Source: a virus. From it: 10,290 nucleotides of DNA. The stretch is from UHGV virus genome UHGV-0301654. One strand, 5' to 3'. The notes under the pieces are model-generated. The model was not told where the DNA came from, made no database searches, and saw nothing but the letters and a program-made list of their open reading frames with translations. Positions 75-165 of this stretch are shown in pieces (position 1 is the first letter of the stretch; every line of letters starts with the position of its first letter). A program made the translations under genes and the position numbers.

Positions 75-165
75 TATTCGATAATGGGTCCTGTTGGCCA
101 TTCAATATCCGGTGCAGTTGTTGTATTAACACGGTTCAGCAACACCCGATACTTCTTCCAGGCTT
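75..165 (-). pseudogene. 3' fragment of a lambda-type tail-fibre assembly (tfa) gene, fused to the invertase remnant
   Basis: Reverse strand reads ...[30 protein letters not shown], which parallels the C-terminus of the intact Tfa at 9613..10188 (...[27 protein letters not shown]). About 90% nucleotide identity by eye to 10098..10188 in inverted orientation. No N-terminal part or start codon. Confidence 0.6.

Follow-up and report, generated by a model that had tools for sequence, protein, structure and literature searches.

Facing tfa gene ends in a mosaic lambdoid prophage window: an inverted repeat probably left by cassette replacement and prophage decay

The 10,290-nt stretch of DNA analysed here (the window) carries near its two ends the 3' ends of two tfa genes, and the inverted repeat that they form is a scar of ordinary prophage decay and mosaicism, of a kind already known, and not a switch. 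The 10-kb distance between this scar and its partner arm may be an artefact of assembly. Our best explanation joins the identity of the arms, the origin of the left one in the replacement of a tail-fibre cassette, a role for the repeat as a by-product of decay and a probably chimeric spacing, and as a whole we hold it with good confidence.

The inverted repeat and the genes that end in it

A repeat search of the window placed the two arms at 92–171 on the reverse strand and 10100–10179 on the forward strand, each 80 nt long, 93% complementary and with 9,928 nt between them. This confirms the initial annotation, which had described an inverted repeat of tfa 3' ends some 10 kb apart and had proposed the precise alignment reported here. 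Compared base by base the arms are identical at 74 of 80 positions (92.5%), the six mismatches falling at 169, 155, 127, 121, 111 and 94 in left-arm numbering, and the longest perfect run is 27 nt (128–154 against 10117–10143), followed by runs of 16, 13 and 9 nt. The repeat had originally been placed at 75–165 and 10098–10188; the repeat itself stands, but those coordinates are 8 nt out of register and agree at 19 of 91 positions when read position by position, because each interval was anchored on its stop codon whereas the unmatched tails beyond the homology are not equally long (17 nt for the left arm, 9 nt for the right). Once the register is corrected, the portion inside 75–165 (92–165) agrees at 69 of 74 positions (93%), which upholds the identity of about 90% first given. 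Homology ends short of both stop codons (75–77 and 10186–10188), and its inner limit lies at 171–174. The number of 74/80 inverted matches expected in 10 kb is <1e-23, and the longest exact inverted match in 20 shuffled sequences was 12–16 nt, against 27 nt in the real one, so a chance origin is excluded. The features at the two ends are as follows.

1..74: spacer separating the tfa stump from a GGDEF (diguanylate-cyclase) cargo gene; attR (ybhB/bio) end of the att-lambda prophage
75..174, reverse: whole tfa 3' stump including its stop TAG at 77–75 (alignment; RefSeq annotation of equivalents)
92..171, reverse: left arm of the inverted repeat, codons ~165–191 of a lambda-type tfa (alignment, AH62 match, PF02413)
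164..175, reverse: zone where pin (codon ~79) joins tfa (codon ~165) (alignments with a 195-aa invertase and AH62 tfa)
176..400, reverse: truncated Gin/Pin/Cin-type serine invertase gene, pin' (PF00239; ORF list)
9613..10188, forward: intact Qin-type tfa, 191 aa (PF02413, E 3.5e-44; tfaQ in matching loci)
10100..10179, forward: right arm of the inverted repeat (repeat search, alignment to the left arm)
10189..10290, forward: tfaQ-pinQ spacer (pinQ, on the reverse strand, starts here in matching loci)

Matches to PF02413 bear out the earlier view that both arms are tfa 3' ends: two paralogous lambdoid tfa genes contribute their conserved last ~27 codons. The right gene matches positions 1–130 of the profile with 150 bits (cut-off 22.1), starts at the stop codon of stf as a complete open-reading frame directly downstream of the tail-fibre gene, and carries the label tfaQ in matching E. 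coli loci, with pinQ (reverse strand), ydfK and ydfJ' after it as the right end of Qin. On the left, the last 39 residues of a fusion frame match the final 27 positions (104–130 of 131; E 4.5e-11, 43.5 bits, cut-off 22.1). The left copy lacks the whole PF02413 domain and follows the truncated pin, not a tail-fibre gene; it is a pseudogene fragment and cannot encode a chaperone. Its last 17 nt are of att-lambda type (…TGPIIE*), unlike the right copy, and RefSeq labels the equivalent stretch in three genomes (H1, H13, H73) as 'tail fiber assembly protein, incomplete, missing N-terminus'. As the arm coincides with the conserved end of the profile (104–130), the similarity could in principle reflect protein-level constraint on the Tfa C-terminus, with no recent common DNA ancestry. 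This is very improbable, as the 92.5% identity at the DNA level includes third codon positions, and the two other tfa genes of the window, which carry the same domain (E 1e-36 to 1e-38), have no comparable match to the arms, their best DNA match being 22 nt at 82%.

The left arm is read on the reverse strand in frame with the truncated invertase gene, the fusion frame beginning MLIGYVRVSTNDQ. The pin' gene comprises 64 codons up to a TGA at 208–206 (codon 65), followed by 13 more recognisable in-frame pin codons; full-length invertases have Arg65 (CGA or CGC) at the position of this TGA. The N-terminus is a resolvase-type catalytic domain (PF00239, E 3.5e-18, profile 2–73 of 145) and is ~94% identical (60/64) over residues 1–64 to a full-length 195-aa phage invertase, while a profile search found the C-terminal HTH domain absent from pin', the frame being replaced by tfa after codon ~79. 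In the alignment with the 195-aa invertase the pin frame is recognisable to E79 (GAA at 166–164), and homology to intact tfa starts within the same dozen bases where pin homology ends. The two parents fit this join zone (164–175) patchily, at 8/12 and 9/12 positions, with only patchy microhomology, and the alignments thus mark the joint, pin'::tfa3', as an illegitimate in-frame fusion. We considered and rejected a continuation of pin past codon ~79, as the tblastn invertase matches that reach fusion residue 95 are a low-similarity extension. The pinQ gene beyond the right end was likewise rejected as an intact copy of pin': a local DNA alignment of window 430–1 (the pin'::tfa3' region) with pinQ yields an 18-nt match only, and PinQ is a different, distantly related recombinase, PinE and PinQ sharing 38% identity (PMC12529663). 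RefSeq annotates the pin fragment as a 64-aa recombinase-family protein. This 64-aa product is on record in 4,358 assembly-collection blocks, and it occurs at at least three chromosomal prophage sites (att-lambda, Rac and near prfC).

Origin of the left arm and distribution of its joint

Between the pin' gene and position 3684 the window holds the remainder of a tail-fibre cassette, with the following parts.

451..488, forward: pin-proximal crossover site, gix/pix-like (repeat search, 38 nt, 92%; site scan)
451..3537: invertible tail-fibre segment (gene calls, Pfam; flipped in other strains)
682–1425, forward: Sv, within the segment
1428–1961, forward: tfa of the Sv-tfa pair, within the segment
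1990–2517, reverse: tfa', within the segment
2521–3483, reverse: Sv', within the segment
3500..3537, reverse: distal crossover site of the segment (repeat search; site scan)
3538..3684, reverse: Sc', the constant part of the side-tail-fibre gene, 3' end only, with the cut at 3684/3685

The att-lambda lambdoid prophage of AH62 is ordered …stf, full-length tfa, a GGDEF diguanylate-cyclase gene (DGC), ybhB, bioA, and window 1–174 is 97.1% identical to the 3' end of this tfa together with its spacer to DGC. At the same site, strains such as 13C1065T and GCA_022180125.1 carry J-lom-stf-[invertible segment]-pin'::tfa3'-DGC-ybhB in the normal late-gene orientation. The joint adjoins DGC/ybhB in that orientation in H13 and L016, and the ancestor-like intact prophage, J-lom-stf-[segment]-pin'::tfa3'-DGC, is found in L016 and L026. 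The match to AH62 tfa and the cassette layout at the same site in related strains identify the stump as the prophage's own tfa. A second stf-tfa module had earlier been proposed to have existed next to pin. From the left arm, a tfa gene did formerly lie downstream of pin; the second module is not borne out, as intact cassette-bearing prophages (L016, L022) have a single stf each and AH62 has stf-tfa-DGC at that very place, the stump thus being the remnant of the single resident module.

These relationships suggest that the distal stf and most of tfa in the att-lambda prophage gave way to a host-range cassette of the Mu/P1/e14 type, which combines a constant stf part, an invertible segment holding two Sv-tfa pairs and an invertase gene of the Gin/Pin type. 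At the right-hand joint of the cassette, pin codon ~79 is fused illegitimately and in frame to tfa codon ~165, and pin may have gained its TGA at codon 65 after the fusion or already have had it before. The inverted repeat would be a by-product of module shuffling and prophage decay, with no dedicated function.

The joint with an att-lambda-type ending and the DGC flank (type A) is present in 95 of 5,426 complete E. coli genomes and that with a Rac/Qin-type ending (type B) in 19 complete genomes, and the pin'::tfa3' joint is identical base for base in 10 other loci. For example, in L018 the identical joint leads into a Rac/Qin-type ending, behind which stand the tfa-pin spacer and pinR at full length, and in a prophage near prfC (L020, L022, L023) it leads into a third ending. 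L018 has the att-lambda allele AAG at the first of the polymorphic sites and changes to Rac/Qin alleles with the second, so its allele switch falls inside the 27-nt perfect block; L017 shows a second, different allele mosaic within the arm. It is very unlikely that the identical joint formed independently at several sites, and we infer that the cassette was grafted first and spread afterwards. As one joint sits on different endings and alleles switch within the arm, the comparison supports the short tfa end having served as a homologous crossover zone for cassette moves between prophages, and the stretch can be called recombination-prone over evolutionary time. Through this conserved end the same pin::tfa cassette end would have become linked to differing resident tfa endings, by a recombination pathway that we infer from the hybrid forms. 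This is in line with experiments in which phage lambda recombined with Qin and Rac inside stf-tfa at ~2e-6, mostly via Red-beta (PMC3945230).

More tentatively, and with a rather low probability in our view, the ~80-nt tfa 3' end might be a maintained linker for swaps of whole host-range cassettes, with facing ends occasionally flipping DNA under Red/RecET. If so, co-resident or infecting lambdoid phages would swap cassettes, in this case the invertible segment together with its dead invertase gene, and such swaps would have spread the pin'::tfa3' joint to at least three chromosomal prophage sites. With the identical pin'::tfa3' scar on three tfa endings, nature offers a clear case in which a short conserved gene end serves as the module boundary in cassette exchange.

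Orientation of the arms and the 10-kb spacing

The interval between the cassette and the right tfa contains the packaging module and the remains of a portal and a side-tail-fibre gene.

4951..4962, forward: lambda cohesive-end sequence GGGCGGCGACCT (cos), exact (sequence match)
5140–5685, forward: nu1 (PF07471)
5660–7585, forward: terminase A, a mosaic of att-lambda-type and Qin-type alleles with its last switch at 7100–7160 (PF05876/PF20454)
7785..8213, forward: stump of the portal gene, B', with an out-of-frame join to stf at 8152/8153
8183..9613, forward: deleted Qin-type side-tail-fibre gene, with an internal deletion at 9483/9484

With cos upstream of nu1 and A, and 95% DNA identity to lambda, this is a lambda-type cos/terminase module. 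The gap between cos and nu1 holds a 26-nt inverted repeat (5059–5084 and 5090–5115, 85%), which presumably sits where lambda has its inverted terminase-binding R sites. Further right, at 8152/8153, the portal gene is cut after ~122 codons and joined to stf nucleotide ~199 via TCCCGC microhomology; the resulting 142-aa B'::stf product is found in 41 collection blocks, most of them from the canonical Qin locus, and the 8152/8153 Qin variant as a single piece was absent from all complete genomes searched. The stf gene has lost 1.3–1.7 kb at 9483/9484, just after the conserved …QNGADIP motif and with CGATA microhomology, which leaves a 476-codon Ala/Ser-rich open-reading frame whose C-terminal region is reduced to the last 43 residues. 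This motif, 29 nt long, recurs at 508–536 (90%), beside the crossover site.

At 3684/3685, Sc' on the reverse strand is joined head-to-head to the last ~17 nt of a small lysis-region ORF on the forward strand, and the whole cassette side (1–3684) stands head-to-head against the block of lysis ORF, DUF1398, ynfO, cos, nu1 and A. Three of 5,426 complete genomes (H1, H2, H73) have this junction, all at att-lambda, and in these terminase A breaks off at window base 7173, where Rz' follows on the other strand; the same arrangement is present in draft genomes with long contigs (L027, L029). An exact 37-nt match spanning 3684/3685 was absent from collections of viral, genome and metagenome contigs, and neither the stf product of the window, with either of two alternative starts, nor its terminase A had an exact protein record. 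The junctions indicate that the att-lambda prophage underwent an internal inversion with deletions at both ends, whose breakpoints lie outside the arms. The arms would have come to face each other through this inversion-plus-deletion at 3684/3685, without being used in it. That the arms themselves made the present orientation was rejected, as undoing an arm-to-arm inversion leaves 3684/3685 no simpler and each arm is still bordered by its parental sequence.

No complete E. coli genome covers at least 80% of the window. Bases 3496–6873 have no mismatch to the att-lambda prophage of H1, and bases 7100–10290 have none to canonical Qin-locus contigs (L010, L014, L015), which also share the rare deletion junctions 8152/8153 and 9483/9484. 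Tabulated by allele, the window is of att-lambda type to 6769, Qin type at 6874–6892, att-lambda type at 6949–7099 and Qin type from 7161, with switches in 6770–6873, 6893–6948 and 7100–7160, and it is a mosaic whose left part, from 1 to ~7100, belongs to an att-lambda prophage and whose right part, from ~7160, belongs to Qin. On the standard backbone (MLI105) Qin lies at ~2.19 Mb and the gal/att-lambda region ~0.78 Mb away on the same record strand, and the junction-type and Qin copies of nu1-A are direct repeats ~0.78 Mb apart on the chromosome, so a real crossover between them would give a duplication or deletion junction and not a simple local structure.

The window probably comes from a short-read genome or metagenome contig that crosses the ~3-kb nu1-A repeat, and would then be an assembly chimera. 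The other reading, to which we give a distinctly smaller chance, is that it is physically real, made by exchange within terminase A between an att-lambda prophage of the 3684/3685 type and Qin, with tfa ends truly 10 kb apart. In its favour, two independent sequences share the layout, namely the window and L011, a 12.4-kb MEGAHIT k141 metagenome contig and the only other sequence that has it. However, L011 switches alleles elsewhere (5126–5361) and has the invertible segment flipped, and the right end that the two share is one at which MEGAHIT contigs end, L010 and L011 both stopping at exactly window base 10290. Paralogous A genes do recombine, as the mosaic A allele of a finished genome (L002) attests, and the final switch in the window lies within 61 nt of shared sequence, less than k = 141, so a pure k141 chimera would need strain-specific alleles or carry-over from a smaller k. 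Set against this, the layout occurs in 0 of 5,426 complete genomes, all finished or long contigs with 3684/3685 (H1, H2, H73, L027, L029) show A ending at 7173 with Rz' attached, the A copies are the distant direct repeats described above, and other assemblies break within the nu1-A repeat, with contigs starting at window bases 5363, 5993 and 7106. We therefore caution that two prophages with the ~3-kb nu1-A repeat in common can end up fused in short-read contigs, and that apparent local inverted repeats may then be ~0.8 Mb apart in reality.

The mosaic terminase A could itself stem from gene conversion between paralogous terminase genes or from chimeric assembly. L009 (ENA ERZ27276707 k141_5004) is Qin-type on its left (Rz, cspI, gnsB, ydfO, nohA … tfa) and Rac-type on its right (usp, porin, PFOR), with 18 mismatches to the window concentrated in 9500–10290; it reflects either an exchange between Qin and Rac within tfa-pin or a further chimera of assembly. 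In L002 (NZ_CP121294.1, strain NWU_1) the Qin-type terminase A starts directly beside gcd/hpt at the equivalent of window base 5651, which indicates a large chromosomal rearrangement with its breakpoint at the nu1/A boundary.

Inversion and comparison with known systems

The initial annotation had proposed that recombination between the arms would invert everything in between. In its strongest form the arms would be an active substrate of homologous recombination, with the 0.2–10.1 kb interval, including the invertible segment, cos and the terminase genes, flipping between two isomers in the population. The 80 nt of homology with its 27-nt perfect block does reach the lower bound of the minimal efficient processing segment in E. 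coli, which is 23–90 bp depending on pathway, but mismatches strongly depress recombination (PMC3758752) and the six present here should trigger mismatch-repair rejection. Natural hybrids have their crossovers in exactly this 27-nt block, Red-beta-type recombinases tolerate short, diverged homology (PMC3945230), and the reading frames of both tfa pieces would survive inversion; yet both arms keep their parental flanks, with no sign of past exchange between these two copies, and the interval may not exist as one molecule. The inverted isomer was found in none of the 5,426 complete genomes or retrieved contigs, and the interval itself is present in 0 of the 5,426 finished genomes. The arms, at 80 nt, 92.5% identity and a 27-nt block, fall short of the kilobase, ≥98% homology of documented E. 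coli inversions. Inversion through the arms is thus possible but marginal and unsupported here, and a population of two flipping isomers is very unlikely.

Site-specific inversion of the 10 kb, with the arms as secondary target sites of a Pin-family invertase, is effectively refuted: an invertase system is present and active in trans (PMC12529663), but a scan allowing ≤3 mismatches placed gix/pix-like sites at 462–488 and 3500–3526 only, with none in or near the arms. The window has these two sites and no further ones, and shuffled sequence has none. Relative to the window, segment 451–3537 is opposite in orientation to both flanks in L004, L007 and L011. L007 shares the truncated pin and the 3684/3685 junction and yet has the segment flipped, so flipping went on after pin broke, which implies an invertase in trans. 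PinQ inverts the e14 P segment in trans (PMC12529663), and inversion of 451–3537 would similarly have to rely on an invertase supplied in trans.

All parts of the window are of known kinds, comprising lambda-type stf-tfa with its paralogues, Gin/Pin-type segments and relaxed lambdoid recombination, and mosaic stf-tfa modules, tfa pseudogene fragments and truncated pin genes are routinely annotated in E. coli cryptic prophages. The finding alone is of little weight, as stf-tfa recombination of lambda with Qin and Rac has already been measured experimentally. Both arms belong to the same family (PF02413) as lambda tfa (orf-194), tfaQ of Qin and tfaR of Rac (E. coli K-12), and the left stump product shares 75% identity with the final 32 residues of orf-194; in contrast to these genes, the left copy consists of the last ~32 codons only, fused to a fragment of an invertase gene. 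The cassette resembles the Gin/Cin/Pin/Min systems (Mu G, P1 C, e14 P) in its constant stf, its [Sv-tfa / tfa'-Sv'] between inverted crossover sites, its invertase gene reading away from the segment and the occurrence of both orientations among strains, and differs in that its invertase gene is truncated (64 codons to TGA, frame lost after ~79) and has no HTH. In O157:H7, the repeats to which prophage-driven inversions were mapped are ≥5 kb long and ≥98% identical (PMC8743559); there, as here, inverted homologous prophage sequences are the substrate, but both isomers were recovered there, whereas none was found for the 80-nt repeat of the window. Finally, De Paepe et al. 2014 (PMC3945230) likewise found stf/tfa of Qin and Rac to be exchange points, with crossovers between mismatches in short identity blocks, in a system of ~650–700 bp homology between an infecting phage and a prophage, whereas here the homology is 80 nt and the evidence comparative.
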